A DNA stretch of 64,000 nucleotides from an uncultured Clostridia bacterium. GTDB lineage: Bacteria > Bacillota > Clostridia > Christensenellales > UBA1242. Both the position numbers and the translations under genes were made by a program. Of this stretch, positions 11 through 44,054 are shown piece after piece. Under the pieces are notes generated by a model. The model was given only the letters and a program-made list of their open reading frames with translations, was not told the origin of the DNA and did no database searches. Each line of letters begins with the position of its first letter. The first letter of the stretch is position 1. The stretch is taken from assembly GCA_934746715.1 (NCBI GenBank), contig CAKVFI010000002.1, positions 245,761-309,760 of the forward strand, written 5' to 3'.

Positions 11-3000
11 TTGTTAAGAAGCAATGGAAATATGAAAATTGTTGTTGCAAATTCTCAATTTTCAAATGGTGGTGAAGTGGAAAATGGAGAAGATTTCCAC
101 GAAAGATTGTATGTGGTTGGTGCAGTTACTGACAGTGTTTTGGTGTTGGATAGTTCATATCTTTTGGGACAAGGTAGCACAGATGAACCTGGGATAACTT
201 CGGGCAACCAAGTGGCTATTAAATATTTTGGATATTACTTTAATTCAAGTAATGGTTATAAACTTGAAAAAACAAAATTTGCTTTGAATATTGAAGGAAC
301 AAAATTGCCAACATCATCAAATGCAACTATTGATGAAATTAAACAATTGTTTGCAAATGACTATGTCTACATGGCGGGCAGTTTTAATTCAAAAGTTTTG
401 TATGGTTGGGAATATAAGCCAGAAGAAATAAGCGGAAAGAACTTTAAGCTGTCATACAAAGCAACCAGCTTGACAAAGGAAGGATGTGGTTATTCTTTAA
501 CATCAAACTCTGGCGTTGACACTTGGACATATACAATAAGGAAAAATTCTGTAACAAAAACTTTTTGGTTTAAAGTTAATTATACAAATGTTAAAATAAA
601 TGGCGAAACAAAAAAACTGATTACAACGGTTGCTGGTAATGGGGACTGGTTCCCAGATGAAAGGGAAAATGCAAATTTAAGTTTGCCAATTGTGCCTATT
701 TGGGTTGATAAAAATGATGCAAGTGAAGATGTTGAAATCCATTTGATAAATCAAAAAAATACAGTTAACAATGGCTCAACAAAGGTTATCAGTGGTGTTA
801 TTGATGAAAATGGAAATGTTAAAGACGAAATTGTTTACAACTATTCATCAAATCCTAAACAAAAATTTCCATATTCATATGGTACGGCTTTTTATACTTT
901 AAATGATGATATTAAATCAACATCATTGTTTGGTGCTAGTTATACAAATCTTATAGGGTTTTCTGATACTTCCAAATATGGATTTTATAAATATGGTTAT
1001 GAGATATCGCAATATAAGGTGAGAGTTCAAAGTTTGGATAGTGGCGATATATATTTAATGTATTATTCTATATGGCAAGAAGAAACTGCAACAAGCACAA
1101 ATTACTCACCAATTGATAGGCTTGTTTCATATAACTATGGAGTTAAAGAGAATAGTGTTTCATCAATTGAATCTTCAACATTTGAAGAGTTGATTAAATC
1201 TGCAAAAAGTAAAGTTAAAGAAAAATGTGGGGTGGTTCTTCGTCTTAAAGTGTTTATTGAACCTGTTTGGAAAGAGGCCACAATAAACGTAGGTGCTAAT
1301 GGAAAAAATCAAACAATTAAATTTGATAATACTTATGATATAGGAAAACCAAATAATCAAACTCATAAAACATTTGCTTATTATTTGGTGAATAATGGTG
1401 ACAATGTTGTTGTAGACAATGCAAAATGGGATTATTACAATATTTCAAAAGATTTATATAATCATAATGTTAAAGTAAAAACTGAAACAAAATATAGTCT
1501 ATTAGCAGAATCAACTGCAATAAAAACATATCAGGAATGTAGAGATATTAGGAATAAAGGCACCTATATGACCATTGACGGGATAAGAGGATACCTTGTA
1601 AGTAATCCTCTGATTATAGGTCCAAATAGTACGGCATTTTATACTGGTTTACCAAATTTTATGCCAATTAATGGCACATGTACTGTAACACAATATCTTG
1701 TATATTCGTATATACAAACGACAAGGACAGAAAAATATGAAATTAATCTCAATCCATATTATGTTGAAAACATTTGCAAACTTAACCTTTTGGGAGCTGA
1801 TGGATTTGCTCCTGCAAAGGGCGGTGACTACAACAGCGTTGTTCAAACAAGTTCATTAAATGATGAATATACATTTAAAAATTGGGTTAATCCAACATAT
1901 AACAAATCAAAACCAATTGAAATTTACACAACTGAATTAAAATCTGGCGTGCAAACTTATCAAAATGCAATTAGCGATGACGCGTCTGATTTGGAAACTC
2001 AAAATAAATATTATTTGAGAAAAGTTTTCTCAACCAATGGAACAGATCGTTACATTTTTGTGGCACACGGACACAAAATTGGCAATCTTATTGTTGAAAA
2101 GAACGGGTTTAACAATGTTGGTTGGTCGTATAATGGCGCGGACGAAAATCCAAAAACACTTTACACAAACTCAAAATTTGATGCTGCCACTTTCCCTGCA
2201 AGTGAAAGTGAAAAATACACCATAAGGAATTATGACGACTCTGCAAATTGGCAATGGTATTACAATATTGATGGCAACAATGTTTTGGACAAAAATGGTT
2301 TGCTTATTGTGTTTGGCGATGGTGGACATGAACTGGTTAGCATTGAATTGATATTTAACACAATTAAACAAACAGATTTGCAAAAAGCACATCTTGGGTA
2401 TGTTGAAGTTGAAATCACAAATGCAGAAACTGGCGCAGTTGAAAAATATCATGTTGAATACAATGCTGCATTAGGTGATATGGCTTATTACAAATATTCA
2501 GGTTCATATCTTGAACCAGTTGAAGGCATATTTGTGATTGGTGGCGGATTGAGAAATGTTGTTGCAAATGTTTATAGTTCAATTAGATTAAGCGAATTTA
2601 AAAATAGTGATGGATATGTTGTTACAGACACATATGCAGACACATTAGGTTACAATTACACAAATTCTGTTAATGATAAATTTGACAACACAACAGCAGA
2701 TGTAACAGTTAGATTTAGTTTGCAAAAACCAAGCAATTCAAAAACAACAACTTTAACTTGGTATGGAAAATCTACCGAATTAACAAATAACAGTGTAGTA
2801 ACGGTTGATTCCAAATTTGATAGCATTGATTATGATGCAAACATTGGTTACACTATTAAAAATCAATCATCAAATAATGCCGCATACGCAAAAACTCAAA
2901 AATATTATCCAAATGGGGAATCTTCATCTGCATATCAAGATGTTTTGATAAAGCTTCTTAACAAAGTTACAGTTGAAGGCTTTGATTTGACAACACTTGA

Positions 3001-6000
3001 TTTGGAAGAGTTGTTTGGCAACGATTATGCTAGTTTGACAGCAGATGAATCAACTTTTGCTGGCTGGCTGGTTGACAAAACAGTTTTGCAAAACCTTGGA
3101 TACACTCAAAAACCTGGTCAAACAAAAACAACAGATAAATGGTATTTGAATGGCAAAACTCAATCAAATGTGTGGATTTACAAAGGATGGATTAAATTTG
3201 ATTGTTCTTCCGAATTTGAAACATTAAACAAAAAACGCGTTTTGGTTGATAAGGTAACAAAAATTTATGCTTATGGCGATTTTGTGCCAGAAGAAATTTG
3301 GGCGGATAGCACAATCTGTTATAAAGGTGCATACAAATTGCCAATTATTCCAAGTTGGAACAGCAAACACGATGTTTCTATAACAGACAAATTGGCTTAC
3401 AAAACAGATTCAACTGGAAGCGATCGCATGGTTGAAGCAGTGCTTTACAACGGAAGTTATTCTTCAAACGTAACATACAAACTTAATGGCGAAACAAATG
3501 TTGACTTTGTTTATTCAAACGCGTCTGCATTCTTGCAACCTAATCAAATTACAAGCAGCTCACTTTACAACGCTGCGGGTAAATATGGTTTGTTTAAATA
3601 CGGTCATGAAATTGCTGGTTATGAAATTTCATTCCGTTATTCTGGTGTAAATTACTATGCTTATCTCAATAGCTTGTCAGATGCAAATGTGGAATGGAAA
3701 GCTGGCATGTCCGCTTCTTCAGTTTCAGTAGATTCTGGCACATTGAGCAAAACAACATTAAAACAATTGATTCAAGCTTTCAACAACTGGACACAAGGTG
3801 ATTTTGTTTTGGCAAGTACAACAATTAATGTTGTTCCTGTTTGGGCTCGTGCAAACATATTGTTGCAAGGCTCTGCAAAAGACCAATTTGCAAACAACAG
3901 AATGAATGTTTTGTATGGTGACAGATACTCAATTTCTCGTGGGAATTGTGCAACTTTGGGCAAATCAATTGCTTATTATACAACACCTTCAAATTGCGTT
4001 GTGGTTTGCGACAGTGGCGTAAGTTCAAACCAAATTTATTGGGATTATTTGGATATCCCTTCAGTTGATTTCAAATATAACAACGGCGTTTACACATTGC
4101 CAATAACAAAGTTTGAAACTGACAATATTTACAAAGTTACATTAAGCAATTTTAGAGGAAATCTTGCTGGCGATTATGGCACAGATATTGAAGTTGCAGC
4201 ACCAAGCAAAGCATTGAATAAAAATGGAGATAATAGTTACTACTCTTATTCTTCTTGGTTAAACGCAAGTTACGATTCGGCTTATGTTGTTGAAAAGTAC
4301 GCAAAAGAATTTGCACAAGATGTGGAAAACTACATCACTGGTGTGGACAACAATGACTCAAATTTCTATTTAAGAAAAGTTTATTCTGTTGGTGGAGAAA
4401 CATATATATTTGTTGCCAACGCGCACACAATTGGCAATTTAGTTTTCCATCGTGATTATTTTGACTTGGTTGCATGGCTTTACAATGGTCAAGATGGTTC
4501 TGTTGCTTATATAACAGAAGAATATGTTGACAGAGCAAATGGTCCACATCAAAAATTGCTTGATGGCAAAACAATTAAAAATTACAACAGCAGTGAAGCA
4601 GAAAACAAGATTTGGACAATCGATATTGACAATTCAAACACACAAAATCCAACATTGTTTGCATTGTATTATCGCCCTGCTTATGAATTGAATGTGAACA
4701 CAATCAACACGGAATTGGCAAGAAAAGAATTTGTTGGTTATGCAATAATTTCGGTTAAGGATAGCGTTGTGGCAGCCGGAGAAGATGGCTCTGCAACATG
4801 CACATATGTGGCAAAATATAACAGTGATGAATCTGTGCAGGATATGGTTCTTTACAAAATTAACAACACTGGGGAGATAACCGATTTGCACAAATTGAGC
4901 AAAGCAGGATTGGACAAATATGAAATTGTTGATTCTGTTATTATCTATTCAGGTTGTGATGTTGATATCTTCGTTGTTGACCAAAGCAAGGTTGAAGATT
5001 TGTCAGCAACAAACGAATATTATGACAACATGATTGGCTATAAGTTCAGTAATGCAATTGATTGCACAATTAATGGCACAGCACAATCGGTTAAAGCAAG
5101 GTATGATTACACAATTTCATTCAACACAAAACAATATGTTGGAGAAAATCCTGTTATAACAGGGCTTTTAAGCGCTGACAATATTAATTTGGAATCCAGC
5201 GACGAAATTGTTGTTGACATTTTGTTTGAACCAATCAAATACAGCACAACAATTGGCTTAACAATTGTAGATGCTGGCGAAATGCATATCACAAACAACA
5301 CAAATTACGAAACAAAAACGACCAAAACTCCTTACACTTTAACATCTTTAAAACGCAATAACTCATACAAAATTTATTATTACGCATATGCTGGTTATGG
5401 TTTGAGCAACAACAACTTCACTCTTGTTAATTCAAGCGTGAATGTGCTTAAAACCTTGTCAGATTCAGCGTCAGACAAAGAAAATCAAACATATGATTTC
5501 AATTTGACTGGCAGTTGGTTGAGAATGTTCTATTATAAGAACGGACCATATAATGTTGAAAATGATGAAAATGCAACATATCAGTTTGTTGGCAACATCA
5601 ACATTAACAACATTTTGCTTGAATTTGATGTTAGATATTTGGTGTTTGTTGGCGATGAAAATGTTCAAAGCAATGCATTGAATAATGGCTTGAACAACAT
5701 CGTTTCAGCGGGCTGGAAACTTGGCGAAAACTTAACTTGGACATTGTCTCAAACATCAGCAAATGATGCAGACGGCAATTTTGCAACTTACTATTATTCT
5801 CAAGGCGAGATGTACGCAATCATCAGCAGTTGGGCACGTCAACCAAGGAATATTAGCAACAGAAACAAATTTGCAAAAAATTATGCATTCTTGCTTAAAA
5901 CTCAACCAATTGAATCTTACACAATTGACACAGACAATTTGTTTGATATGGTTGAAACAAACAGGGGTATAATTGTTCCAAAACAAAACAGAACAATGTA

Positions 6001-8086
6001 CTTGGCAATGCAAGTTATGCCTATGTACAAAATTGAAATGCAAATTGCAATTAATGAAAATGACACAAACTGCACAGAAAGAACTCTCACAGTTAACAAC
6101 GGCAATGGTAACTCTGTTGCATTGATTGCAAAAGCAGGCCACAGTCAGGACACAACCACATTTATTTACACATACTTGGGGTTGGAAAACACAATTGCAT
6201 CAACTTACGATGAAAAATATTACATTGCAGTGAATTACACAAACGCAACAACCAATTCCAGTGTTGAATCACCATTCACAACTGATCAACACATGACATT
6301 GAAAGCAACATTCACTCCAAAGGAATTGCCAATCAATTTGTCGTTTAATTACAACAACGAGCAAATCACACAAGAGCAAGCATTAACATTCCTTGTTGGT
6401 TGGAATATGCCTGTTACACGTGGGCAATTGAACAACATTCAAAATGCTCCAAAAGAAGGGTTTGTTGTAACAAACGATACAATTGAATTTGTTTACACAG
6501 TAAGCATTTGGTATCATGTTGTTATTGCAGTGAATGGCGACAGCGAAAGAGTTGACGCTGCAAACAAAATTTACATCAAAAATGAAGATTATCAAACTGG
6601 CAAAATTGACATTGTTGTTAACATCAACGACAAACAAAGGGGTATGATTATCCTAAAAGTTGTTGGCGACAATTCAAATGGAACAACATTCCATGACGCG
6701 GACAACGCTGCATTGCTTGAATTTGCAAACTTGTACATCAATGGTGTTAACAGTGCAAAATCTGGCATATTTATTGAAGGTTATCCAGTTAGCATCAAAT
6801 TTGCAGATATTCCAAAAGGCTATCGTTACATGGGGCTTAGGAAGGATAATGGCGGCATAGACTCTAAATATGTTGTTGAAGGTTCTGTTATTTCAATCAC
6901 AAATGGCGTAAGGCCTGCTAACATGACAGAAGATGAATATGTAAGCAGCATTGAAGGTGTTTACTACGCAGTGTTCCAAAAAGTTGTTGTAAACACAGAA
7001 ATGACTTTAACTGCAAAAAACAAAAACAATTATTCTTATAGGTCAGACAGTCAACAAGCTGTTTGGGATTTGAACAAACTTGTGCTTACAAAAGGTGTTA
7101 GCGTAAACGACACAATCACATTCAATCGCATTAAAAACCTTGAAAATGAAGAATTGGATTACTACTATTACATCGACAGCACTGGCGAGCACCAAGTTTA
7201 CGACAACAAAATTGTTATCACAAACGAGTTGCTTGAAGCACTTGACGGTGAGTTTAAAGACAAAGCAAAAACTTTGGTTCTTGGTGTTGTTAACAAATTG
7301 AAATATTATATTACAATCAACATTGATGAAGCAAATTATGATTGCTTGCAAACATTGCTTGTTAATGATGAACCTTGCAACAAGTTGAATGATTTAACTT
7401 ACATCAGCAAATATTATTACGAAAACACAATCATTAATTTGAAAGTTGAATCAATCAACAAAGAAAAATATTCAATTAAAGTTACTGGCGATTACGGCTT
7501 CTCTGGCGCTCAAATTGACAATAAGTTTAGCTTAACTCAAGACGCAAATTTGATTGTTTCAATTTACAAAAACACATTTACAATGTCAGTTGAAGAAAAA
7601 TTGTTTGCCGACATTGTTGAACTTAACACAAACAATCCACAAACCTTAACAGGGGATAAGTTAATCAACAAAAATTCCGACAACAATTCAACACTTGACG
7701 GCACAAAATTTGTTTATCAAAATCAAACAAAAGTGGACATCAAACAAGCGGACGGGGAAGGCGACAACAAAAAACTTTTAACACAACTTGTGTTGACAGA
7801 CGAAAACTTGTCAATTCAATTTAACATTGATTGGAACAAGGAAGATATCTCAAATTGCTTTGTTGTTAAAAACAGCGCAGGCGAGCAACTGGTGGCAGAA
7901 ACATCAGCAACACGCGACACCGCAAACAGCAACAAAATCAATTTAACAGTTGTGGTTGACAGTGTTGTTTACTCTTATTCGTTTGAACTCCTTTCTTCAA
8001 ACAATGTTCAATTGACATTTGTTGGAGTTGGCAACTGCAATTTAACTTTGATTTACACTTCAATCAAACTTATTACAGTAAGTTAA
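11..8086 (+). CDS. Giant secreted/surface protein, 5'-partial (frame is open to the window edge), with internally duplicated modules and degenerate Listeria-Bacteroides-type repeat signatures
   Basis: Uninterrupted 2691-codon ORF with no in-frame stop between nt 2 and 11 and no signal peptide at the visible N-terminus. Paralogous blocks are present, e.g. KYGFYKYGYEISQYKV (nt ~971) vs KYGLFKYGHEIAGYEI (nt ~3578), and YLRKVFSTNGTDRYIFVAHGHKIGNL (nt ~2005) vs YLRKVYSVGGETYIFVANAHTIGNL (nt ~4363). Recurrent aromatic-x-x-W motifs occur (FAGWLVD, VGWSYNG, VAWLYNG). Confidence 0.8.
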   Translation: MLRSNGNMKIVVANSQFSNGGEVENGEDFHERLYVVGAVTDSVLVLDSSYLLGQGSTDEPGITSGNQVAIKYFGYYFNSSNGYKLEKTKFALNIEGTKLPTSSNATIDEIKQLFANDYVYMAGSFNSKVLYGWEYKPEEISGKNFKLSYKATSLTKEGCGYSLTSNSGVDTWTYTIRKNSVTKTFWFKVNYTNVKINGETKKLITTVAGNGDWFPDERENANLSLPIVPIWVDKNDASEDVEIHLINQKNTVNNGSTKVISGVIDENGNVKDEIVYNYSSNPKQKFPYSYGTAFYTLNDDIKSTSLFGASYTNLIGFSDTSKYGFYKYGYEISQYKVRVQSLDSGDIYLMYYSIWQEETATSTNYSPIDRLVSYNYGVKENSVSSIESSTFEELIKSAKSKVKEKCGVVLRLKVFIEPVWKEATINVGANGKNQTIKFDNTYDIGKPNNQTHKTFAYYLVNNGDNVVVDNAKWDYYNISKDLYNHNVKVKTETKYSLLAESTAIKTYQECRDIRNKGTYMTIDGIRGYLVSNPLIIGPNSTAFYTGLPNFMPINGTCTVTQYLVYSYIQTTRTEKYEINLNPYYVENICKLNLLGADGFAPAKGGDYNSVVQTSSLNDEYTFKNWVNPTYNKSKPIEIYTTELKSGVQTYQNAISDDASDLETQNKYYLRKVFSTNGTDRYIFVAHGHKIGNLIVEKNGFNNVGWSYNGADENPKTLYTNSKFDAATFPASESEKYTIRNYDDSANWQWYYNIDGNNVLDKNGLLIVFGDGGHELVSIELIFNTIKQTDLQKAHLGYVEVEITNAETGAVEKYHVEYNAALGDMAYYKYSGSYLEPVEGIFVIGGGLRNVVANVYSSIRLSEFKNSDGYVVTDTYADTLGYNYTNSVNDKFDNTTADVTVRFSLQKPSNSKTTTLTWYGKSTELTNNSVVTVDSKFDSIDYDANIGYTIKNQSSNNAAYAKTQKYYPNGESSSAYQDVLIKLLNKVTVEGFDLTTLDLEELFGNDYASLTADESTFAGWLVDKTVLQNLGYTQKPGQTKTTDKWYLNGKTQSNVWIYKGWIKFDCSSEFETLNKKRVLVDKVTKIYAYGDFVPEEIWADSTICYKGAYKLPIIPSWNSKHDVSITDKLAYKTDSTGSDRMVEAVLYNGSYSSNVTYKLNGETNVDFVYSNASAFLQPNQITSSSLYNAAGKYGLFKYGHEIAGYEISFRYSGVNYYAYLNSLSDANVEWKAGMSASSVSVDSGTLSKTTLKQLIQAFNNWTQGDFVLASTTINVVPVWARANILLQGSAKDQFANNRMNVLYGDRYSISRGNCATLGKSIAYYTTPSNCVVVCDSGVSSNQIYWDYLDIPSVDFKYNNGVYTLPITKFETDNIYKVTLSNFRGNLAGDYGTDIEVAAPSKALNKNGDNSYYSYSSWLNASYDSAYVVEKYAKEFAQDVENYITGVDNNDSNFYLRKVYSVGGETYIFVANAHTIGNLVFHRDYFDLVAWLYNGQDGSVAYITEEYVDRANGPHQKLLDGKTIKNYNSSEAENKIWTIDIDNSNTQNPTLFALYYRPAYELNVNTINTELARKEFVGYAIISVKDSVVAAGEDGSATCTYVAKYNSDESVQDMVLYKINNTGEITDLHKLSKAGLDKYEIVDSVIIYSGCDVDIFVVDQSKVEDLSATNEYYDNMIGYKFSNAIDCTINGTAQSVKARYDYTISFNTKQYVGENPVITGLLSADNINLESSDEIVVDILFEPIKYSTTIGLTIVDAGEMHITNNTNYETKTTKTPYTLTSLKRNNSYKIYYYAYAGYGLSNNNFTLVNSSVNVLKTLSDSASDKENQTYDFNLTGSWLRMFYYKNGPYNVENDENATYQFVGNININNILLEFDVRYLVFVGDENVQSNALNNGLNNIVSAGWKLGENLTWTLSQTSANDADGNFATYYYSQGEMYAIISSWARQPRNISNRNKFAKNYAFLLKTQPIESYTIDTDNLFDMVETNRGIIVPKQNRTMYLAMQVMPMYKIEMQIAINENDTNCTERTLTVNNGNGNSVALIAKAGHSQDTTTFIYTYLGLENTIASTYDEKYYIAVNYTNATTNSSVESPFTTDQHMTLKATFTPKELPINLSFNYNNEQITQEQALTFLVGWNMPVTRGQLNNIQNAPKEGFVVTNDTIEFVYTVSIWYHVVIAVNGDSERVDAANKIYIKNEDYQTGKIDIVVNINDKQRGMIILKVVGDNSNGTTFHDADNAALLEFANLYINGVNSAKSGIFIEGYPVSIKFADIPKGYRYMGLRKDNGGIDSKYVVEGSVISITNGVRPANMTEDEYVSSIEGVYYAVFQKVVVNTEMTLTAKNKNNYSYRSDSQQAVWDLNKLVLTKGVSVNDTITFNRIKNLENEELDYYYYIDSTGEHQVYDNKIVITNELLEALDGEFKDKAKTLVLGVVNKLKYYITINIDEANYDCLQTLLVNDEPCNKLNDLTYISKYYYENTIINLKVESINKEKYSIKVTGDYGFSGAQIDNKFSLTQDANLIVSIYKNTFTMSVEEKLFADIVELNTNNPQTLTGDKLINKNSDNNSTLDGTKFVYQNQTKVDIKQADGEGDNKKLLTQLVLTDENLSIQFNIDWNKEDISNCFVVKNSAGEQLVAETSATRDTANSNKINLTVVVDSVVYSYSFELLSSNNVQLTFVGVGNCNLTLIYTSIKLITVS

Positions 8087-8097
8087 ACAAAAAACAA

Positions 8098-8128
8098 AGA
8101 TACACTCAAAATGGGTGTATCTTTTTTT
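8098..8128 (+). terminator. Rho-independent terminator of the giant gene
   Basis: Stem AGATACAC/GTGTATCT with a 9-nt loop, followed by T7. Confidence 0.8.
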
Positions 8129-8168
8129 ATAAGTCCACAAGACAATGGTTATTTTTAATTCTCAGTTC

Positions 8169-8210
8169 TGTCATACCGAGAATTGCTTGCAATTCGAGTG
8201 TATCTTTTTT
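8169..8210 (+). repeat. Hairpin repeat, copy A1 (TGTCAT-ACCGAG-[GAATTG CTTG CAATTC]-GAGTGTATC-T-run)
   Basis: Same flanks as the copy at 11865-11904. The inner 6-bp stem is fully substituted yet still complementary, with an identical CTTG loop. Confidence 0.75.
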
Positions 8211-8223
8211 GGTAAAATCCAAT

Positions 8224-8252
8224 TGTCATTCTGAGCGCAGCCGAAGAATCTC
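8224..8252 (+). repeat. Hairpin repeat, copy B1 (TGTC-ATTCT-GAGCG..CGA-AGAAT-CTC)
   Basis: Shares the TGTCAT..GAG....CGA..ATCTC frame with 8283-8321 and 11910-11949. The 5-bp stem covaries. Confidence 0.7.
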
Positions 8253-8282
8253 TAAACGAAGAGCAGCCTGTTGCAAAGCACG

Positions 8283-8321
8283 GAGATGTTTCGACTCCGT
8301 TGCACTACGCTCAACATGACA
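8283..8321 (-). repeat. Hairpin repeat, copy B2 (reverse orientation; rc = TGTC-ATGTT-GAGCG...TCGA-AACAT-CTC)
   Basis: The reverse complement matches the family frame. The stem ATGTT/AACAT is complementary. Confidence 0.7.
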
Positions 8322-8431
8322 AAAGGTAATAAAAACTTTGATGTTTAATTTTGTTTTTTGTGTTTTAGCACTCACAAAATTAATAGTTTGCCAAAAAAAT
8401 GACAATTTTGCAAAAACTTGTTGTTTTTTGT

Positions 8432-8461
8432 TTGACTATTTATGTCGAATTATTATACAAT
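8432..8461 (+). promoter_or_regulatory. Candidate sigma-A promoter for the long leader and TasA-like gene
   Basis: TTGACT (8432-8437), 18-nt spacer, TACAAT (8456-8461). Confidence 0.4.
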
Positions 8462-8469
8462 CAAAATGA

Positions 8470-8880
8470 CAAGTGAATGATGTCGATGTAGTTTGCATGT
8501 CAAAAAATTATAGGCAAACTTGGTGTGGCAACGCACCGAGATTGTTAGGGTTAAGAGCCCTACAAGTAAATTTGCAAATTTGTTTGTAGTGATACAAACT
8601 TCTGCACTCGAATTGTACACACCGGGTGCGGAAATCGGTTCAATTTGCTTGTATGCAACAAACGCGCATTGCGTGTTTGGTCGACATCAGGCATTTAGGG
8701 AACACTTTTGGCATCAGCCAAAAGTTAGTTGGCAAAACTTAAAATGCCATGAGTTAAATTGTCCGTTGGTCGAAACAATCGCAACAATTTAACTTCGCTT
8801 TGTTTACGCAAAGCAAAATACTTCTTGTTTGGCTTTGCCAAAACAGGAATTTTAAAAAATTTTAAAGGGGAAAAATAAAA
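8470..8880 (+). promoter_or_regulatory. Long structured 5' leader (about 400 nt) upstream of the expressed TasA-like gene; class unknown
   Basis: GC content is visibly higher than in normal intergenic DNA here. It contains many perfect local hairpins (TAGGG/CCCTA, GTTTGT/ACAAAC, ACTTTTGGC/GCCAAAAGT, GGCATTT...AAATGCC enclosing stem). The only ORF (8520-8792) has a TTG start, no RBS and atypical W/H/C-rich composition. Confidence 0.45.
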
Positions 8881-9528
8881 ATGACAAAAATGAAATCTAA
8901 AAAGATGACAAAGTCAACATTTGCAATCATTATAATGGGAATTGTGATGGTAGCTATGCTCGCTTTCGGCGGCACTTTCGCGTTGTTTACTGCTCAAGCT
9001 AGCACAAAAACCAGTGCTGAATTCACAACAGGTACAATTAAATTGACATCTGGCGTTACATTTGCCTCTGAAACAGATGCAAACATTTTACCAGGTTCAA
9101 AAATTACAACTGCAGCTATCACAGTTAAGCCAGAAGCTGTCGGCACAAAATCTTTTGTTGCTGTTAAACTCACAATTACAGGTACAGGTTCAGTTGATGA
9201 TTTAAATTTGAATAATGTCCTTGCCGATGGTTGGGTAGCTTTAACCGGTGAAAATAAAGGTATCTATGTTTATGCTACCGGCACAAACGATACTGATTAC
9301 GCATTCGCAGAAATGAATGCTGAAACAAATTTTACAAAAGATGCTATTCTTTATGATGCAACAAGCAACTCACTTGACGATCAAGCTGGTGCAAAAATGG
9401 GCTTGACATATAAAATTGAAGTTCGTGCAGCATCTGTTCAATCAACATATGGTGACACAGCATTGTCAAAAGAACAAGCTATTGCAGCATTAGTTGAAAA
9501 GCTTGCTGGCACACCTGCAAAAGTTTAA
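8881..9528 (+). CDS. TasA/camelysin-family secreted protein with SipW-type signal peptide (expressed copy)
   Basis: RBS GGGGAAAA upstream. The N-terminus has a K-rich n-region, an h-region and GGTFALFTA, typical of SipW-cognate signal peptides. The body is beta-rich and about 180 aa. Confidence 0.75.
   Translation: MTKMKSKKMTKSTFAIIIMGIVMVAMLAFGGTFALFTAQASTKTSAEFTTGTIKLTSGVTFASETDANILPGSKITTAAITVKPEAVGTKSFVAVKLTITGTGSVDDLNLNNVLADGWVALTGENKGIYVYATGTNDTDYAFAEMNAETNFTKDAILYDATSNSLDDQAGAKMGLTYKIEVRAASVQSTYGDTALSKEQAIAALVEKLAGTPAKV
8931..8981 (+). repeat. Inverted repeat, left arm (51 nt, perfect)
   Basis: TATAATGGGAATTGTGATGGTAGCTATGCTCGCTTTCGGCGGCACTTTCGC is identical to the reverse complement of 11497-11547. 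Confidence 0.95.
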
Positions 9529-9544
9529 TTTTGTATTAGATTAA

Positions 9545-9569
9545 AAAACACGCATTAGCGTGTTTTTTT
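9545..9569 (+). terminator. Rho-independent terminator
   Basis: AAACACGC-ATTA-GCGTGTTT followed by a T-run. Confidence 0.8.
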
Positions 9570-9633
9570 GTCGGTTCGAATTTTTTATTTGATAATTTTT
9601 GTAATATTTTGTATTATGATTTTGGGAGTAGAT

Positions 9634-10821
9634 ATGAATAAAAACATATTAAAATATTATCAAAATAAATATTATAATTTAAATAAGAATGGGCAATCAA
9701 GTGACTTTGAAAAAGATTATGATAGATTTAAAAGCCATTTTAAAGTTGAAAATATAGACACCTTAACAATAGAACAATATAGGGATTTTTGTTCTGCTAT
9801 AAACAACATTAAATCAAAAATAGGTTCAAAAAAGTTATTGCCAAAACAATTTGGTGTTTATTTTGAAAATAAAACTGGATTTAATACAAAATTTGGCAAC
9901 ACGTTTGAAAATGCTTTTGCAACTGTCAAAGAAGATATAAAAAACTTGATAAACTATGCACAACAAGAAAATATTAATACAAAAATTAAATCGAGGTTTA
10001 ATGCTGATTTTGTAAATATCATATTATCTATTTATAACAAAAAATTTTTGCCAATTGATCATAAAGATATTGATTATTTTTTAATGATTTTTGGCGAAAT
10101 AGAAAACAACAAATCATATTTTGAAAAACAAAACAAACTTATTTCATTTAGAAGTGAAATAAATGACAACTGGGACAATTTTGATTTTGCCAAATTTGTG
10201 TATTATGTAAAAAACACAAATGAAGTTGCACAAATTGAAGATGAGGCTGATAGACAAAACAACATCAATGCAATATATTTTATTGCGCATAATGAAGAAC
10301 GAGAATATCAAGACAAACCAAGGTATAATAACAATCAAAACCACATTTTTAAATTTGAAACAAACAAAGATTGGTATTCTAGCAAGCCAAAAGAGATTAA
10401 TAAAAACGGGCATACATATTATGAAAGGAATAAAAAAGTAACTGCATCAGTTTTGGAAAATGCAAGAGAATGTGAATTGTGCCATACCCCTATTTGTGCA
10501 AATTGGTGTATTGATTCACTTAATAATATTTGCAGTCGTTGTCATCCAACTTTTGAAAGAAAAAAAGATCACTCATTGCTATACTTTGAAGCCCATCACC
10601 TAATACCTATGAAAGCAGCAGGCAAAGTCTTTAAAGAACATATAGTCAACATTGATATCCCTGAAAATATCGTTCCACTTTGCAGCAATTGCCACAATTT
10701 AATTCATTATGGAGTCAAGTATCAAAGTCTAGTGATTGAGTTATTCAAAAAAAGGCAAGCCGACTTGGCAAGCATTGGATTGAAAATCTCTCAACAAGAA
10801 CTTTTGGATATGTACAATTAA
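9634..10821 (+). CDS. HNH-nuclease-domain protein with an uncharacterised ~300-aa N-terminal domain (McrA-like architecture)
   Basis: The C-terminus has CELCH...CSRCH...EAHHLIPMK...NIVPLCSNCHNLIHYG (CxxC/CxxC zinc plus HNH beta-beta-alpha-Me motif). I prefer the start at ATG 9634, which has a GGGAG RBS; the track ORF starts at 9568. Confidence 0.7.
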   Translation: MNKNILKYYQNKYYNLNKNGQSSDFEKDYDRFKSHFKVENIDTLTIEQYRDFCSAINNIKSKIGSKKLLPKQFGVYFENKTGFNTKFGNTFENAFATVKEDIKNLINYAQQENINTKIKSRFNADFVNIILSIYNKKFLPIDHKDIDYFLMIFGEIENNKSYFEKQNKLISFRSEINDNWDNFDFAKFVYYVKNTNEVAQIEDEADRQNNINAIYFIAHNEEREYQDKPRYNNNQNHIFKFETNKDWYSSKPKEINKNGHTYYERNKKVTASVLENARECELCHTPICANWCIDSLNNICSRCHPTFERKKDHSLLYFEAHHLIPMKAAGKVFKEHIVNIDIPENIVPLCSNCHNLIHYGVKYQSLVIELFKKRQADLASIGLKISQQELLDMYN

Positions 10822-10932
10822 AAAACTCGAGTTCAAAAGCGCGTTAACTGCTATTTATATATTATTATAAAGAACAACAAACGAGTTTGTTGTTCTAATA
10901 TATAATATACAATTGTGTTAAATTTGAGTAAG

Positions 10933-10959
10933 AAAAAAACCGACTGATGTCGGTTTTTT
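10933..10959. terminator. Bidirectional terminator between the convergent HNH gene and the silent cassette
   Basis: AAACCGAC-TGAT-GTCGGTTT flanked by an A-run and a T-run. Confidence 0.8.
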
Positions 10960-10970
10960 ATTTAGACAAA

Positions 10971-11543
10971 TTAGTCAGCAGTGAATTCTGCTTTAACCAA
11001 ATCAAATGCTTCTGTAACTGCAAATGGAGTTTCAACACCAGCTGTTGTTGATGTTTTAGCATATTGAGTAGCAGCAAATTTAACTGTGATAGTAATAATT
11101 TTGTCCATATTACCAGCAACAACACCATTGTCAGATGTTGAGTTACCTGTTTCAGTTAAAGTAGCTTCCTTTTCCCAAGTTACTTTAGCAGCAGCTTCTG
11201 ATGTAATGTAGTATACATTGCTATAACCTTCAACAGTAGCAGCTTTCCATTCACCAGATTCACCAGTTAAATCCAAACCCATTGTTGAATCATTGGCTGT
11301 TTTGATTTGAACAAAGATGTAAACTTTACGATTTGAAGCATTTTCAACTTCAGCTGTCAATTTAACAGCATCGCCTGGCAATGCAGCGTTTTGTTGGGAC
11401 ATTGTCAAACTTGCTGTAGCAGAATCAGCTTTCAATGTAACGTGAGCCATTGTGATTTTTTGTGCTTCAACTGCATTTGATTTAGCAGTAAAGTAAGCGA
11501 AAGTGCCGCCGAAAGCGAGCATAGCTACCATCACAATTCCCAT
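10971..11543 (-). CDS. TasA/camelysin-family cassette lacking its own n-region, RBS and promoter (apparently silent copy)
   Basis: The body is paralogous to 8881-9528. Reading begins inside the shared IMGIVMVAMLAFGGTFA segment. The sequence upstream of the repeat (KAWCDA..., hairpin GCGTCGCA..TGCGACGC) has no Lys-rich n-region and no Shine-Dalgarno. The track ORF extends to 11663 through non-coding-looking sequence. Confidence 0.6.
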   Translation of the reverse strand: MGIVMVAMLAFGGTFAYFTAKSNAVEAQKITMAHVTLKADSATASLTMSQQNAALPGDAVKLTAEVENASNRKVYIFVQIKTANDSTMGLDLTGESGEWKAATVEGYSNVYYITSEAAAKVTWEKEATLTETGNSTSDNGVVAGNMDKIITITVKFAATQYAKTSTTAGVETPFAVTEAFDLVKAEFTAD

Positions 11544-11547
11544 TATA
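11497..11547 (-). repeat. Inverted repeat, right arm (51 nt, perfect)
   Basis: The reverse complement equals 8931-8981 exactly. Identity stops abruptly at the 5' side. Confidence 0.95.
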
Positions 11548-11864
11548 GCGTCGCACCACGCTTTTATGCTTGGTTGCGACGCAAGCTTGCAACACAAAGC
11601 CTTTAAGCGGCTGCTCCTTAACCCCAACAAACCCACTTTGTTTGGCTTTGTTGGGGATCCCAAATTTTAGCCATATAGCCAGTTTGCTAATCATAGATTA
11701 CGCAAATATGAGCCTTTCTGGTGATTAACCGCTTTCTATTAAGGGGGACACAAACTTTCCCCCTTAATATACTCCTTTGGCTAAATAGGATTGTTGAAGT
11801 GTGAAAGCCCATCAGTGGAAGAATTGGCTGCAATATTTGGCTTTGTTGGGGATTTATATTGTCC

Positions 11865-11904
11865 TGTCATACCGAAACCAACTTGTTGGTTGAGTGTATC
11901 TTTT
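11865..11904 (+). repeat. Hairpin repeat, copy A2 (TGTCATACCGA-[AACCAA CTTG TTGGTT]-GAGTGTATC-TTTT)
   Basis: Same flanks and loop as A1, with a compensatory inner stem. Confidence 0.75.
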
Positions 11905-11909
11905 GTTTA

Positions 11910-11949
11910 GAGATCCTTCGACTGCGCTATCGCTCCACTCAGGATGACA
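11910..11949 (-). repeat. Hairpin repeat, copy B3 (rc = TGTC-ATCCT-GAGTGG...GTCGA-AGGAT-CTC)
   Basis: Matches the family frame, with covarying stem ATCCT/AGGAT. Confidence 0.7.
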
Positions 11950-12014
11950 GTGGTACGTTGTGAGCAAATATAAGCGTTTGTGGGATTATTGGGGGACAAA
12001 CAATTTTAACAAAG

Positions 12015-13028
12015 TTAAAATTCGACGATTTTTAAGTCGTGGGCGTCTTGGAAAACGATGTGATAGCCGTCGGAAAGTGGGTCGGTGGGGTCGAGTGGAA
12101 GCCATTGATGATGCTCGCCAAGTTCTTGTGGAACTGGGGCGTTGTAGGCAGTTGGCACGGCGTAGCAGATATATTGGAGTTGGTCGTCCTTGTAAATTGC
12201 ACCCAAGCAGTAAGTTGAACTGCCTTCGGTTATGGTTACAAAGCGAGAGTTTTCAATTGCGTTGTTAAGTTGTTCGCAAGCAGGATAGGTTTTGAAGATA
12301 TAATCAAATTGCGGTATTAAACTTTCCACAATCGATGGGGCGGTTTTTGTGTTTGGAGCGGGGGCTGTTGAGTGTGATTTGTTGTTATCTTCTTGATTTT
12401 GTTTAACATATGAATTGTCAGTTTTTTGCGCATCATTTGCCACGGGTTGACTGGTGTGGGCTGATTTGCTTATGTTTGGTGTTTGAGTGTTTGCAACTGG
12501 GTTTTGAGTGTAAAAATATTCTTTATATTTGCAGTTGGCACAAGGGTTTGTGTTGGTTGAGTCATTGTTTGAGCAGGTGTTAAAGCAAGGTTGTTCGCTC
12601 GCGTGCGGGGGCTGGGGGTTGGAAAAAGCTGTTTCGCAAGCGTCGGGCATGATTTTGTTTGGGCTAAAACTGTTGTTTAAATTTTTTGTTATCACGCTTG
12701 TGTCATTAAAATAAAATCCGCCATATGTGCCACCAGCAAGCAGTGGCTCGTTGTTGTTTTGGGTGTCCACAATGGCGCAATAAAAATCACTGTCCATGTC
12801 AAAATCGCCAACAAGTGAACTAATGTAAGCGCCGTCTTTAAAAAGCATGTTGCTTGAATACACTTGATTGTTGTGAAAAACGCCCAATTTGCAGTTGGTG
12901 TTGAGCGCGGAAAACGAGTATAGGCGAAGTTTGGTTTTTAACAAATCATTTTCCTTGGTTAGTGTTAAAATTGCTCTGCCAGATTTGTTGCTGGTTTGCG
13001 ATTGTAAAATCATTGTTTTGCTGTTCAT
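12015..13028 (-). CDS. Hypothetical protein with a central low-complexity N/Q/P/T-rich linker
   Basis: 337-codon ORF with ordinary codon usage. I recognise no motif. Confidence 0.55.
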   Translation of the reverse strand: MNSKTMILQSQTSNKSGRAILTLTKENDLLKTKLRLYSFSALNTNCKLGVFHNNQVYSSNMLFKDGAYISSLVGDFDMDSDFYCAIVDTQNNNEPLLAGGTYGGFYFNDTSVITKNLNNSFSPNKIMPDACETAFSNPQPPHASEQPCFNTCSNNDSTNTNPCANCKYKEYFYTQNPVANTQTPNISKSAHTSQPVANDAQKTDNSYVKQNQEDNNKSHSTAPAPNTKTAPSIVESLIPQFDYIFKTYPACEQLNNAIENSRFVTITEGSSTYCLGAIYKDDQLQYICYAVPTAYNAPVPQELGEHHQWLPLDPTDPLSDGYHIVFQDAHDLKIVEF

Positions 13029-13327
13029 ACTTTAATTATAGTTGGTTAAAATTTTTAATATGACTAGAATTTTGGCGTTATGACATAAATGTTGGCAGAA
13101 TAGGGCTTTTATTGTTGAAATTAGTGGATTTTTATGCTTGCAAAACTTGATTTTTAACTGCTTGTATTAACTTAAAATAATTGACATAACACCATTTGTG
13201 TGATAATATTAATTAAGCGTGAATTGGCATTGTTTGTTTTTTGCCACTGCGTGTGCAAACATTTGATTAAAACATATTTTGTTGTGTTTATTGAGTGTTT
13301 GTTTAGGCTATAATTTAATGAGGATAT

Positions 13328-14707
13328 ATGAAAAAGTTTTCTAAAATTATTATTTGTTTATTATTGTGCGTTTTTGCTTTTGGTGTTGTTGGCTGCAAAA
13401 AGAATAATGTTGACAACAATTTCCACCCAGCAAGCGAAGATGTTGTTACTGGCAACGGCGGTTTGGTTGTTAGAAAAGGTGAATATGTTTACTTTGCAAA
13501 TGGTTTTCAAAAAGTTAGCGATTTAACAAGCGACCAACAAAACGCAAGTTTTGTTAAGGGTGGTTTGTACGCTGCAAAACTTACACACGACGATTTTGCT
13601 CGCGATGATGACGGCCTTGTTACAAGCGATTCTATGCGTGTTGTAAGTTCAAAATTGGCTGGCTATGATGCAACAAACCTTTTTGTGTTTGGCGATTACC
13701 TTTATTTTGTTAGCCCAAGCAACGAAAAAGAATCTGGCAAATTGTCAAGCAGTGAATGGGCAAAAGATAGGTCAGTTTTCTATCGTACAAAACTTAACAA
13801 TTTTGATGATGTTCAAGAAATTTATCAAGCTAATGTTAAACACGAAAATTTGTCATTCCAATATTATTACAAAGACGGCAAACCTTACCTTTTGGTGCAC
13901 GAAAAAGGTGAAGATTTAAACGGCGACGGCAACAAAGATATGCTTAAACGCATTGACGTAACAGCAAAGAAAAACAAAGTTAGCGTTGTTGCAAGCAATG
14001 TGTCAAGTGTTGTGTTTGGCTATGACAGCGAAGATAACGCTTTTGATAGAGTTCACTATGTTGAACAAAAAGACGGCAAATACAACCTTGTGAGATATAA
14101 TGTGGCAGAAAATTCTGGCACAACAATCGAACAAAACAGCACCGAAACAGTTGTTAAGTTTGTTGGTGATAAATATGTTTATGTAACCAAAAAAGATGGC
14201 GACAACACATATATGTATCGTGCGGAAATTGGCAAAACAGCATTTGCAAAAATGTTCAATGCAGATAGTTCAATTGTGGGCGATTTGTACCTTTTGCCAG
14301 AAGGCGAAGATGTTGTGGCTGTTAGAGATAATGTTATCCAATTTTTCCTTCGCGGCGACAGAATGCCAAGCATTAACACTATTGTTGACAGCGACGCAAC
14401 AAAAATCAATGTGATTGGTTTTGCAAATGGCATGATTGTTTACTACGACAACAACAACAAACTTAAAACAGTTAACTATGCGGACGCTTCCATTGGCGGA
14501 AATTACAAAATCAATAGTTTGGCAAAAATTGAATTCAACAAAGATTTTATTGATATTGATGGTAACAATTTGTACTATTTCAGCGGCGAAAACAATGGCT
14601 ACTTGTTCACGATAGACCTTTCTCTTGTGCCTGAAGAAGAAGCAACAGAAGGCAAAATGGTTGGCGTTTATTTAGATGCTGACAAACCAAAAAAGGACGA
14701 AGAATAA
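13328..14707 (+). CDS. Lipoprotein, DUF5050-like beta-propeller
   Basis: Lipobox LLCVFAFGVVGC after a K-rich N-terminus. GNGGLVVRKGEYVYFANG and repeated YVYF/YLYF strands resemble DUF5050 proteins. Confidence 0.6.
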   Translation: MKKFSKIIICLLLCVFAFGVVGCKKNNVDNNFHPASEDVVTGNGGLVVRKGEYVYFANGFQKVSDLTSDQQNASFVKGGLYAAKLTHDDFARDDDGLVTSDSMRVVSSKLAGYDATNLFVFGDYLYFVSPSNEKESGKLSSSEWAKDRSVFYRTKLNNFDDVQEIYQANVKHENLSFQYYYKDGKPYLLVHEKGEDLNGDGNKDMLKRIDVTAKKNKVSVVASNVSSVVFGYDSEDNAFDRVHYVEQKDGKYNLVRYNVAENSGTTIEQNSTETVVKFVGDKYVYVTKKDGDNTYMYRAEIGKTAFAKMFNADSSIVGDLYLLPEGEDVVAVRDNVIQFFLRGDRMPSINTIVDSDATKINVIGFANGMIVYYDNNNKLKTVNYADASIGGNYKINSLAKIEFNKDFIDIDGNNLYYFSGENNGYLFTIDLSLVPEEEATEGKMVGVYLDADKPKKDEE

Positions 14708-42286: not shown

Positions 42287-42292
42287 AAAAAC

Positions 42293-42425
42293 AACCATAA
42301 AGAGTGTGCGAGGGACGAGCCCCGTTGACCACACAGCAACCTAGCGTAACGCCAAGGTGCTAAAGGCCGACCGATGGGTGAATGAATATTGAATTTTAAC
42401 TCATCGGCAACGATGGGTTTTTTAA
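42293..42425 (+). promoter_or_regulatory. SAM riboswitch (SAM-I clan) with intrinsic terminator
   Basis: GTGTG-CGAGGGACGAGCCCCGTTGAC-CACAC-AGCAACC...CCAAGGTGCTAAAGG matches SAM-I core signatures (AGGGA, GCCC, GCAACC, GGTGCTAA). The terminator is ACTCATCG-GCAA-CGATGGGT plus T6, and the alternative pairing CCGATGGGT/ACTCATCGG could act as an antiterminator. Confidence 0.75.
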
Positions 42426-42454
42426 TCCTCTCTTTATGGCAAAAGGAGAGATTT

Positions 42455-43819: not shown

Positions 43820-44054
43820 AAATTATTATAAAAATATCAAAAAACAGCAATTTTATTAAATTTTTAATAAAAAATTAAAATTTTTATTATTTTTACATTG
43901 TTTTTTATTCTTTTTTATGAAATATCAAATTATTGCAAAATGCAAATAACAAAATAAATTTTTCCAATTTATTTGTAAAATTATATTAATTAATATATAA
44001 TAATTATAATATAAATTTTTGCAAAATGGTTGCAAACATTTGTTTGGGGGAAAA

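Follow-up and report, generated by a model that had tools for sequence, protein, structure and literature searches.

Here, we report a locus in a 64,000-nucleotide stretch of Christensenellales DNA (hereafter the window) that is very probably an inversion switch, built from an expression site and a silent cassette, for a secreted TasA-like fibre subunit. In the proposed model, a single promoter, leader, ribosome-binding site, ATG and n-region (8432-8930) would serve whichever cassette adjoins them, and a 65-80-bp arm would code for the rest of a SipW-type signal peptide and for the first residues of the mature protein. An inverted copy of this arm would head a second cassette, promoterless and start-less, placed tail-to-tail with the first at a distance of 2.5 kb. 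If the arms recombine, the segment between them would flip, fusing the start in frame to the other mature domain and silencing the prior one. As the crossover would fall inside the signal peptide, the entire mature protein would be swapped, and the cargo gene between the cassettes would flip along with the segment. The features of the locus, in positions of the window, are as follows.

8432..8461, + strand: promoter TTGACT - 18 nt - TACAAT, the best sigma-70-type match in 8087-12100 (10/12)
8470..8880, + strand: structured 5' leader of ~410 nt, at the expression site only (MFE -141.6 kcal/mol, z = -7.3)
8864..8871, + strand: Shine-Dalgarno AAAGGGGA, 9 nt 5' of the ATG, read from the sequence
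8881..8930, + strand: ATG and Lys-rich n-region (MTKMKSKKMTKSTFAI), at the expression site only
8931..8997, + strand: left arm, perfect over 8931-8981, coding for the signal-peptide h/c-region IMGIVMVAMLAFGGTFA and the first mature residues
8983..9528, + strand: cassette A, the mature TasA-like domain now expressed (ORF 8881-9528)
9543..9569, no strand assigned: hairpin terminator after cassette A (AAAAAACACGCATTAGCGTGTTTTTTT), read from the sequence
9634..10821, + strand: cargo gene for a 395-aa HNH protein (Pfam HNH_2 and HNH)
10921..10972, no strand assigned: hairpin separating the HNH gene from cassette B (inverted repeat I8, arms of 24 nt at 83%)
10971..11480, - strand: cassette B, a mature TasA-like domain that is intact and silent (33% identity to A)
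11481..11547, - strand: right arm, perfect over 11497-11547
11548..12014, - strand: silent-site flank, non-coding, with no promoter, Shine-Dalgarno or n-region
11548-11682: MITE-like insert of ~135 nt within the silent-site flank
11860-11950: REP-like palindromes within the silent-site flank

A sequence-only reading of the window had previously described a perfect 51-nt inverted repeat at this locus, and 51 of 51 positions do match between 8931-8981 (+) and the reverse complement of 11497-11547. The 51-mer has only these two copies in the 64-kb window (chance expectation, 0) and is part of a longer repeat (8931-8997 / 11481-11547; 67 nt, 94% identity) whose arms are separated by a spacer of 2483 nt. 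Identity stops sharply at the outer edge of the arms (...CATT, then ATAATG, versus ...ACGCT, then ATAATG) and fades across ~16 nt at the inner edge, where three mismatches lie at 8982-8987, in agreement with the abrupt 5' end and the 3' decay of about 15 nt given in that reading. It had also held that both arms are coding in the same frame: each encodes IMGIVMVAMLAFGGTFA in frame within its TasA-like ORF, and the repeats begin at codon 17.

The same reading had assigned a promoter, leader, ribosome-binding site, ATG and Lys-rich n-region to the + strand copy only, and our analysis confirmed this asymmetry, with a single such start in the 64 kb. The n-region MTKMKSKKMTKSTFAII behind an ATG occurs once in the window, and the same n-region heads exactly one copy per locus in 15 loci. 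In 13 loci, the started copy is preceded by a conserved TTTGACT...TATAAGAT/TACAAT block with the GATGTCGAT motif downstream of it, and AAAGGGGA is kept in every started copy. A consensus fold of the leader from six species contains 74 pairs, of which 15 show compensatory changes, and no Rfam family matched it.

With regard to the protein family, the label of TasA-like proteins with SipW-type signal peptides is better backed for the family than for the two proteins by themselves. Taken alone, the two proteins give only scores below the cut-offs (Pfam PF12389 Peptidase_M73, 17.9 bits for A and 16.5 bits for B against a cut-off of 22.5; TIGR04088 on the B ORF, 18.4 bits against a cut-off of 19). 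The assignment fares better at the family level: PF12389 is carried by many homologues, some homologues are labelled 'SipW-like signal peptide' in JGI, and a family profile built from 51 sequences matches TasA chains only (8AUR and 5OF1; E 7e-4 and 1e-3). The AF2 model of cassette A (pLDDT 74.7) has as its top Foldseek match the TasA fibre 8aur_A (probability 1.00, E 1.3e-3, with a TM of only 0.37), followed by donor-strand pilins, including archaeal bundling pili. No signal peptidase gene was found among the window ORFs scanned. The AAAAAACACGCATTAGCGTGTTTTTTT hairpin also lies 3' of both cassettes in two related loci, L001 and L002. A diversity-generating retroelement or hypermutation was considered as the source of cassette diversity and set aside; the cassettes are full-length paralogues of ~30% identity under purifying selection.

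The comparison with related assemblies supports the inversion of the segment. The sequence-only reading had predicted an in-frame fusion of the expression site to the other mature domain, and the 208-aa protein P0001 in L001 is that protein: the predicted chimera of the expression-site N-terminus and domain B is matched with 98% identity over 100% coverage. The flanks of L001 are ~98.5% identical to the window; window 6500-8997 is collinear with L001 5145-7779 and window 11483-14000 with L001 10270-12841, whereas window 10970-11547 is inverted at L001 8290-7713. Thus the expression site of L001 is joined to cassette B (98% aa identity), and a 72-76% relative of B occupies the same place in L002. 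L001 is more than one inversion apart from the window, its silent cassette being C and not A and its cargo two small ORFs and not the HNH gene.

In a sister species (L002-L004 and L035), the entire segment lies in the opposite orientation, including the HNH gene. Window 9543-11547 aligns in reverse with L002 12058-10051, where the HNH orthologue (62% identical) is encoded on the opposite strand, and likewise in L035, in line with the earlier claim that this gene flips with the segment. A second independent case is the KTSEVKGSF cassette, silent in L016 and active in L024. The opposite orientation among related assemblies, on which the sequence-only reading had staked its refutation, was therefore seen, as a junction in L001 and as a whole segment in L002 and L035, and the attempt to refute it failed. 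Judging from these assemblies, both orientations occur in nature.

Within the A/HNH/B haplotype itself, the consensus of all ~13 contigs or assemblies has the orientation of the window. The exact cassette-A protein, with six contigs read and five places shown, was at the expression site in all. The reciprocal junction (silent flank, arm, A) gave nothing by pattern search in JGI metagenomes, and no ORF with a silent A was found by protein search. One orientation in ~13 assemblies implies that switching is probably infrequent. Contig ends were also considered as evidence of mixed orientations and rejected: L007, L017 and L022 break at or in the arm, but other ends are scattered or lie in the REP/MITE-rich flank, and coverage is low.

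Across about a dozen Christensenellales genomes, 15 distinct loci follow the same plan, with exactly one started copy and one or two 5'-truncated copies. Where a locus has two copies, these invariably converge, with arms 1.35-2.9 kb apart; multi-cassette versions occur in L023 and L011+L014. A degenerate arm pattern detected only three further loci in JGI metagenomes, all of identical design. The silent cassettes are all open over 177-216 codons, while every one of 20,000 shuffled 186-codon windows contained a stop. The dN/dS between silent cassettes is 0.20-0.25, versus 0.25 for one active-active pair, and that of cassette B is 0.24-0.29. By these measures, the silent copies remain intact under purifying selection and are functional genes. 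The arms are 98.1% identical within genomes versus 88.1% between genomes, and their outer third is 100% identical within every genome versus 83% between genomes. At none of the 12 variable columns of the outer and middle arm (columns 7-39) do one genome's own arms differ (0/12). As far as these alignments indicate, the arms evolve in concert.

The genes between the arms vary from locus to locus and, by sequence, look like defence genes. In the window, the HNH protein has PADLOC matches to PD-T4-1 (1.8e-8) and to a type IV methyl-directed restriction enzyme (2.8e-6), and its gene is missing from most other loci. The HNH protein was rejected as the recombination enzyme because it is absent from L001 and most loci of the same architecture. 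The hairpin at 10921..10972 is likely a bidirectional terminator.

For the mechanism, we favour a homology-driven (RecA-type) inversion of low frequency, in which homologous recombination between the arms, accompanied by gene conversion, would drive the exchange in place of a dedicated invertase. Such low-frequency flips would produce rare variants that could be amplified by phage, antibody or niche selection. The absence of any tyrosine or serine recombinase from the 64 kb, already remarked upon in the sequence-only reading, was borne out by a Pfam scan of 42 long ORFs that cover the window (~64 kb of genome seen), and no recombinase recurs among 64 flanking ORFs of ~11 other genomes. The best dyad core in the arm has 7/9 matches, a value reached by 159/500 shuffles. 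A crossover at a fixed point would not homogenise both of its sides, and the homogeneity of the arms hence counts for a homology-driven process. On the other hand, 65-80 bp is little homology for RecA to act on efficiently. Some stretches of the arm are kept between species at synonymous sites, using CTC, TTC, GGC and GCG codons, which we presume to be rare at 34% G+C; this conservation together with such codons could mark a protein-binding site.

The same switch may instead be inverted by a dedicated site-specific recombinase that is encoded elsewhere and acts on a core site in the conserved part of the arm, which we regard as possible but rather unlikely. The unlinked enzyme would be comparable to RecV of Clostridioides difficile, or to the master invertases of Bacteroides that act on distant invertons. 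Programmed inversions are usually catalysed by recombinases, and cases with no recombinase nearby are known (PMC9881135). Moreover, the GCTATGCTCGCYTTCGGYGGYACTTTCGC block is nearly invariant across species, including several synonymous sites with such presumably rare, G/C-ending codons, and the outer homology boundary falls at the identical nucleotide beside ~11 unrelated flanks. However, such an enzyme was found neither in the 64 kb here nor as a recurrent neighbour of ~11 other loci, and the arm is without a dyad-symmetric core. In addition, the arms are homogenised on either side of any fixed crossover point, for which homology-dependent conversion would be needed anyway, and the consensus orientation is stable over the ~13 assemblies, unlike that of many high-frequency invertons.

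It is quite improbable that there is no working switch at all, that is, that the - strand copy is a 5'-truncated remnant, the 51-mer a trace of gene conversion or of a recent duplication, and the differing orientations of the lineages rare accidental rearrangements. The single orientation of the haplotype and the failure of both the JGI pattern search and the protein search to find the exact reciprocal junction agree with this explanation. But it does not account for a convergent design of one started and one truncated copy in 15 loci, for silent cassettes that are intact under purifying selection as strong as on active ones, for at least two instances of a cassette that is silent in one genome and active in a different one, or for the concerted evolution of the arms.

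Upstream of the - strand copy, the sequence-only reading had described a hairpin-rich, non-coding run-in with no Shine-Dalgarno, which is what we observed: hairpins are abundant in the silent-site flank (z = -4.6), and the GTGGTGCGACGCTATA sequence that precedes the first in-arm ATG is without a Shine-Dalgarno. The flank sequence varies between species while the start of homology remains constant at (T)ATAATG, and the ORF extension 5' of the in-arm ATG contains a stop codon in the sister assemblies L006 and L008. That both genes are expressed as ordinary paralogues, the - strand copy being translated from its in-arm ATG (MGIVMVAM...) on transcripts that continue out of the 337-aa gene upstream, is highly improbable: an ATG does stand at the very start of the arm in each silent copy, and the 337-aa gene is co-directional with no strong - strand terminator predicted from 12015 to 11548, but no Shine-Dalgarno lies in range of this ATG either here or in L002, the signal peptide would be without the positively charged n-region found in every started copy, and the flank is hairpin-rich, unconserved and interrupted by the stop codon in both sister assemblies. 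The possibility that a group I or II intron interrupts the - strand gene at 11548, its upstream exon carrying the n-region, was also considered and rejected: a search of 8000-12400 gave no intron or other Rfam family even at E<=10, the window has the n-region only once, and the flanks of sister species are unrelated. For genome annotation, it should be noted that gene calls render silent copies of this kind as proteins with a truncated N-terminus or an odd extension, and that these copies are not pseudogenes.

TasA-like fibres are known as biofilm matrix scaffolds, and Christensenellales is a heritable, health-associated gut order. If the proposed switch operates, members of this order could exchange the complete fibre subunit that they expose and retain a single module for its regulation and secretion, with a bearing on phage-receptor escape, IgA evasion and strain persistence. 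The locus would also be a natural test of how short (65-80 bp) coding repeats sustain inversion in the absence of a linked invertase. A more comprehensive reading, which we put forward only tentatively and consider doubtful as a whole, is that of recombinase-independent, homology-driven antigenic variation of TasA-like fibres across gut Christensenellales, in which gene-converted 65-80-bp arms would be the sole substrate, the segment would also be a place where anti-phage defence genes preferentially integrate and, with each switch, change direction relative to the strong expression-site promoter, and the ~400-nt leader would be a previously undescribed RNA.

The inversion mechanism favoured here is that of the sapA S-layer variation of Campylobacter fetus, where several homologues without promoters of their own have a conserved 5' region in common and depend on one promoter, and RecA-dependent homologous inversion between these conserved regions of hundreds of bp inverts the promoter-bearing segment. 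Here, a conserved 5' segment is shared by all cassettes and homogenised within a genome; however, the arms are 65-80 bp, and the part that would flip in two-copy loci is the cassette segment.

The slp switch of S-layer proteins, which are abundant and secreted to the surface, has one active expression site with a strong promoter, behind which an opposed silent gene is moved by inversion of the chromosomal segment, at low frequency and with no linked recombinase described in the review (PMC3666127). The present locus appears similar in having one active site, an opposed silent gene and, as we infer, a low frequency, whereas it differs in the product (a TasA-like fibre), in belonging to another phylum-level lineage and in the variable, defence-like cargo. 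The recombination region of slp has been reported as a short Din-invertase-like site; the arms here, in contrast, are 65-80 bp long, evolve in concert and have no dyad core.

In vsa of Mycoplasma pulmonis and vpma of M. agalactiae, site-specific inversions act on a single expression site and on silent genes that have neither a promoter nor a 5' end, linking the promoter and amino-terminal coding DNA to a formerly silent gene (PMC4534519). The single expression site, the 5'-less silent genes and the multi-cassette versions (compare L023 and L011+L014) are all similar here. The vsa and vpma loci carry a dedicated tyrosine recombinase and use short specific sites. Neither a locus-borne recombinase nor a short dyad site is found in our case, where the product is a TasA-like fibre; vsa and vpma encode tandem-repeat lipoproteins.

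[quoted passage not shown] All four are present here; as to the asymmetry, the partner is without everything from the transcription start site to the first repeat, which holds in 15 loci. Variation of orientation within a species is another shared property (L001, although the silent cassette and cargo also differ there). Recombinase genes are enriched near the loci of that study (PMC9881135), whereas none was found in the 64 kb here, and that paper makes no mention of TasA, camelysin, SipW or signal peptides (PMC9881135). Our literature searches returned no report of inversion-driven variation of TasA-family proteins. The locus is probably one more instance of an antigenic-variation switch of a kind already known, in a protein family and a bacterial group that are new to it.

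A 51-nt inverted repeat had been claimed from the sequence alone, and the segment at 8931-8981 (+) indeed equals the reverse complement of 11497-11547 at 51/51 positions; the window contains two copies of this 51-mer, with none expected by chance. After ungapped extension the arms reach 67 nt (8931-8997 and 11481-11547, 94% identity, 2483 nt between them). As described previously, identity is lost sharply at the outer edge (the flank side) and decays across ~16 nt at the inner edge, and IMGIVMVAMLAFGGTFA is encoded in frame by both arms, inside two convergent ORFs with TasA-like products:

8881-9528, + strand: cassette A ORF (215 aa), at the expression site
End at 10971, - strand: cassette B ORF (silent), convergent with the cassette A ORF

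The mature domains of A and B, also said to be strongly diverged, share 33% identity. Each arm ends just past the predicted cleavage region (GGTFA/YFTA), so that inversion would swap the whole mature protein.

The sequence-only reading had predicted an in-frame fusion of the expression site to the alternative mature domain, and had proposed a comparison of related genomes for the opposite orientation. We queried the protein database with a hypothetical product in which the expression-site N-terminus is joined to mature domain B. The best match was P0001 (208 aa, N-terminus MTKMKSKKMTKSTFAIIIMGIVMVAMLAFGGTFAYFTAKSNAVEAQK), with 98% identity and 100% query coverage. Its contig, L001 from another assembly, matches the window at ~98.5% identity in the flanks: L001 5145-7779 is collinear with window 6500-8997, L001 8290-7713 corresponds to window 10970-11547 in inverted orientation, and collinearity resumes across window 11483-14000. 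In a sister species (loci L002-L004 and L035, ~74% nucleotide identity), the segment lies the other way round between its flanks over its whole length (L002 12058-10051 corresponds to window 9543-11547); the expression site there carries a B-like cassette (72-76% identical), and a further truncated cassette occupies the silent site. The HNH gene, which had been expected to flip with the segment, has its orthologue there on the opposite strand (62% amino acid identity). The opposite orientation sought in related genomes is thus present, and these alignments show that arm-to-arm recombination turned the segment round while close strains and species were diverging.

The proposed asymmetry between the copies also held. 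The top promoter match within 8087-12100 is TTGACT-18-TACAAT (8432-8461), and this promoter block, the downstream GATGTCGAT motif, the AAAGGGGA Shine-Dalgarno site and the MTKMKSKKM start lie upstream of exactly one copy, an arrangement conserved in 13 related loci; the Lys-rich n-region appears nowhere else in the 64 kb. No Shine-Dalgarno site was found before the - strand copy, where the preceding sequence is GTGGTGCGACGCTATA/ATG, and its flank is hairpin-rich non-coding DNA. In L006 and L008, both sister assemblies, a stop codon lies in the apparent ORF extension of this copy. The gene at the expression site is preceded by a strongly structured 5' leader (8470-8880, +, ~410 nt; z = -7.3). 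Of the 74 pairs in its six-species consensus fold, 15 show compensatory changes; GNRA-type loops (GCAA and GTGA) are present, as is a long-range closing helix (GGCA...UGCC). The leader matched no Rfam family and may represent a stabiliser or regulatory leader RNA of a kind not yet described.

A degenerate arm-peptide pattern identified 16 stretches in species-representative genomes and three more in metagenomes. The hosts of the 16 were Candidatus Onthoplasma, Christensenella sp. UBA4626 and uncultured Clostridia, of the order Christensenellales. Once split contigs had been joined, at least two copies were present at each of 15 distinct loci, exactly one of them started, and the copies of two-copy loci were always convergent and 1.35-2.9 kb apart. 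In every silent copy homology starts at the same nucleotide, (T)ATAATG, adjoining ~11 unrelated flank sequences. For the 29 cassettes compared, which come from the first 15 sources, median pairwise identity is ~32%, and just four pairs lie above 60%. A cassette that begins KTSEVKGSF provides a second active/silent case, being silent in locus L016 and active in L024 (87-88% amino acid identity). Two loci have three cassettes:

L023: 2491 (+), 3852 (-) and 4512 (-); one started, one tandem, one convergent
L011+L014: L011 1333-1367 (-), L014 6030 (+) and 7731 (-)

These layouts are shufflon-like, in that each cassette could be exposed by successive inversions. In L011+L014 the extra silent cassette and the started copy are head-to-head, the former 9.5 kb upstream, so that inversion would turn the promoter round along with several housekeeping genes.

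All silent cassettes are open (177-216 codons), and every one of 20,000 shuffled 186-codon windows from this genome contained a stop. Two silent-silent pairs had dN/dS values of 0.20 and 0.25, one active-active pair had 0.25, and silent-active pairs ranged from 0.24 to 0.44. Such values imply that selection sees the protein products of silent cassettes, which requires expression at some point; judged by these substitution patterns, silent cassettes are functional genes. We consider it quite likely that the locus is a working expression-site/silent-cassette inversion switch, in which inversion would pick the resident cassette to be expressed.

The silent slot and the cargo turn over between strains, since L001, besides having B at the expression site, differs from the window in its silent cassette (C) and in its cargo, two small ORFs in place of HNH, and L035 differs from L002 only in silent cassette and flank. 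This turnover probably proceeds via homologous replacement with imported DNA. The cargo between the cassettes was as follows:

L010, L014, L024, L025: no cargo
L012 5068-5325: 85-aa ORF
L001 8490-9463: two small ORFs
L018 4979-6484: 501-aa protein (PADLOC PDC-S60, E 1e-18)
Window 9634-10821, also L002/L035: HNH protein (PADLOC PD-T4-1, 1.8e-8; type IV methyl-directed restriction enzyme, 2.8e-6)

The gap resembles a small hot spot for the integration of defence genes, one that is inverted together with the segment, and cargo is dispensable for inversion.

Within the switch reading, inversion driven by homology rather than by an invertase seems somewhat probable. No recombinase was present among 42 long window ORFs scanned with Pfam, in agreement with the sequence-only reading, and none recurred among 64 ORFs flanking the loci of ~11 other genomes. 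No dyad-symmetric core was found in the arm (the best dyad was equalled in 159/500 shuffles). Arm identity is 98.1% within genomes vs 88.1% between them; in the outer third, identity between genomes falls to 83%, the lowest along the arm, yet the two arms of each of the 14 genomes match there at 100%, and at none of the 12 variable columns of the outer and middle arm (columns 7-39) do a genome's own arms differ. With a fixed crossover point, at least one side of each arm would stay tied to its flank and be free to diverge; homogenisation of both sides needs heteroduplex or gene conversion. The lack of a nearby recombinase and of a core site, together with concerted arm evolution, therefore favours homology-dependent recombination over a dedicated invertase. 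Inversion by an unlinked site-specific recombinase is a serious rival, to which the conservation of part of the arm between species, synonymous sites included, lends support, and we regard it as possible, if doubtful. Switching is probably rare, which agrees with the shortness of the arm and with a single orientation, that of the window, in all ~13 assemblies of the A/HNH/B haplotype.

Singly, A and B fall slightly under the Pfam Peptidase_M73 (camelysin/TasA) threshold, and B slightly under that for SipW-cognate signal peptides. A 51-member family profile matched only TasA among all PDB sequences (8AUR, E 7e-4; 5OF1, E 1e-3). The best Foldseek match of an AlphaFold model (pLDDT 74.7) was the TasA fibre, with probability 1.00 but TM 0.37, followed by donor-strand-complemented pilins. 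We use TasA-like fibre subunit as a working label. No sipW gene was found among the scanned ORFs of the window.

Several other elements were observed. A ~135-nt element (11548-11682), which looks MITE-like, adjoins the outer edge of the right arm and is absent there in L002, L012 and L025; an 18-nt piece recurs at 11836-11853, and L001 has an inverted copy upstream of the promoter (6962-7073), which gives a second inverted-repeat pair (60 nt, 90%) outside that of the arms. REP-like palindromes of the type 'GTCATTCTGAGCGCAGCCGAAGAATCTC ... CTCAGGATGACAG' lie on both sides of the locus (8165-8310 and 11860-11950), with compensatory differences between copies in internal hairpins. A terminator hairpin, AAAAAACACGCATTAGCGTGTTTTTTT, occurs at window 9543-9569 and follows both cassettes in L001 (8307-8333 / 9704-9730) and L002 (10652-10681 / 12029-12058), forming there a second, inner inverted-repeat pair that brackets cargo only. 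Directly upstream of the switch, a giant ORF without any Pfam domain (11-8086, +; at least 2691 aa in the window, 3264 aa in L005) is syntenic with it in L001-L009. Elsewhere in the window we found a second giant ORF (44019-50372, +; 2117 aa, a subtilase with nine MBG_2 domains), a SAM (S-box) riboswitch (42292-42380, +) immediately 5' of the S-adenosylmethionine synthetase gene (42389-43819), and a 208-aa ORF (57300-57926, -) matching Pfam Phage_30_3 (bacteriophage protein GP30.3, E 1.6e-27) in otherwise housekeeping, chromosomal surroundings.

We found no literature reports of inversion-driven variation in the TasA family, or of such a system in Christensenellales. The sapA system of C. fetus is among the closest functional analogues of the switch locus. 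The locus shows all four predictive attributes of the gene-altering programmed inversions described by Milman et al. (PMC9881135), namely inverted repeats within a pair of coding sequences, a short spacing of the pair, a tail-to-tail arrangement with repeats close to the 5' ends, and a gene/pseudogene asymmetry, and it has variation between genomes as well. TasA, camelysin and signal peptides are not mentioned in that paper; unlike here, recombinases are enriched near the loci it describes. The closest functional analogues are slpA/slpB of L. acidophilus (PMC3666127) and vsa/vpma of Mycoplasma (PMC4534519).
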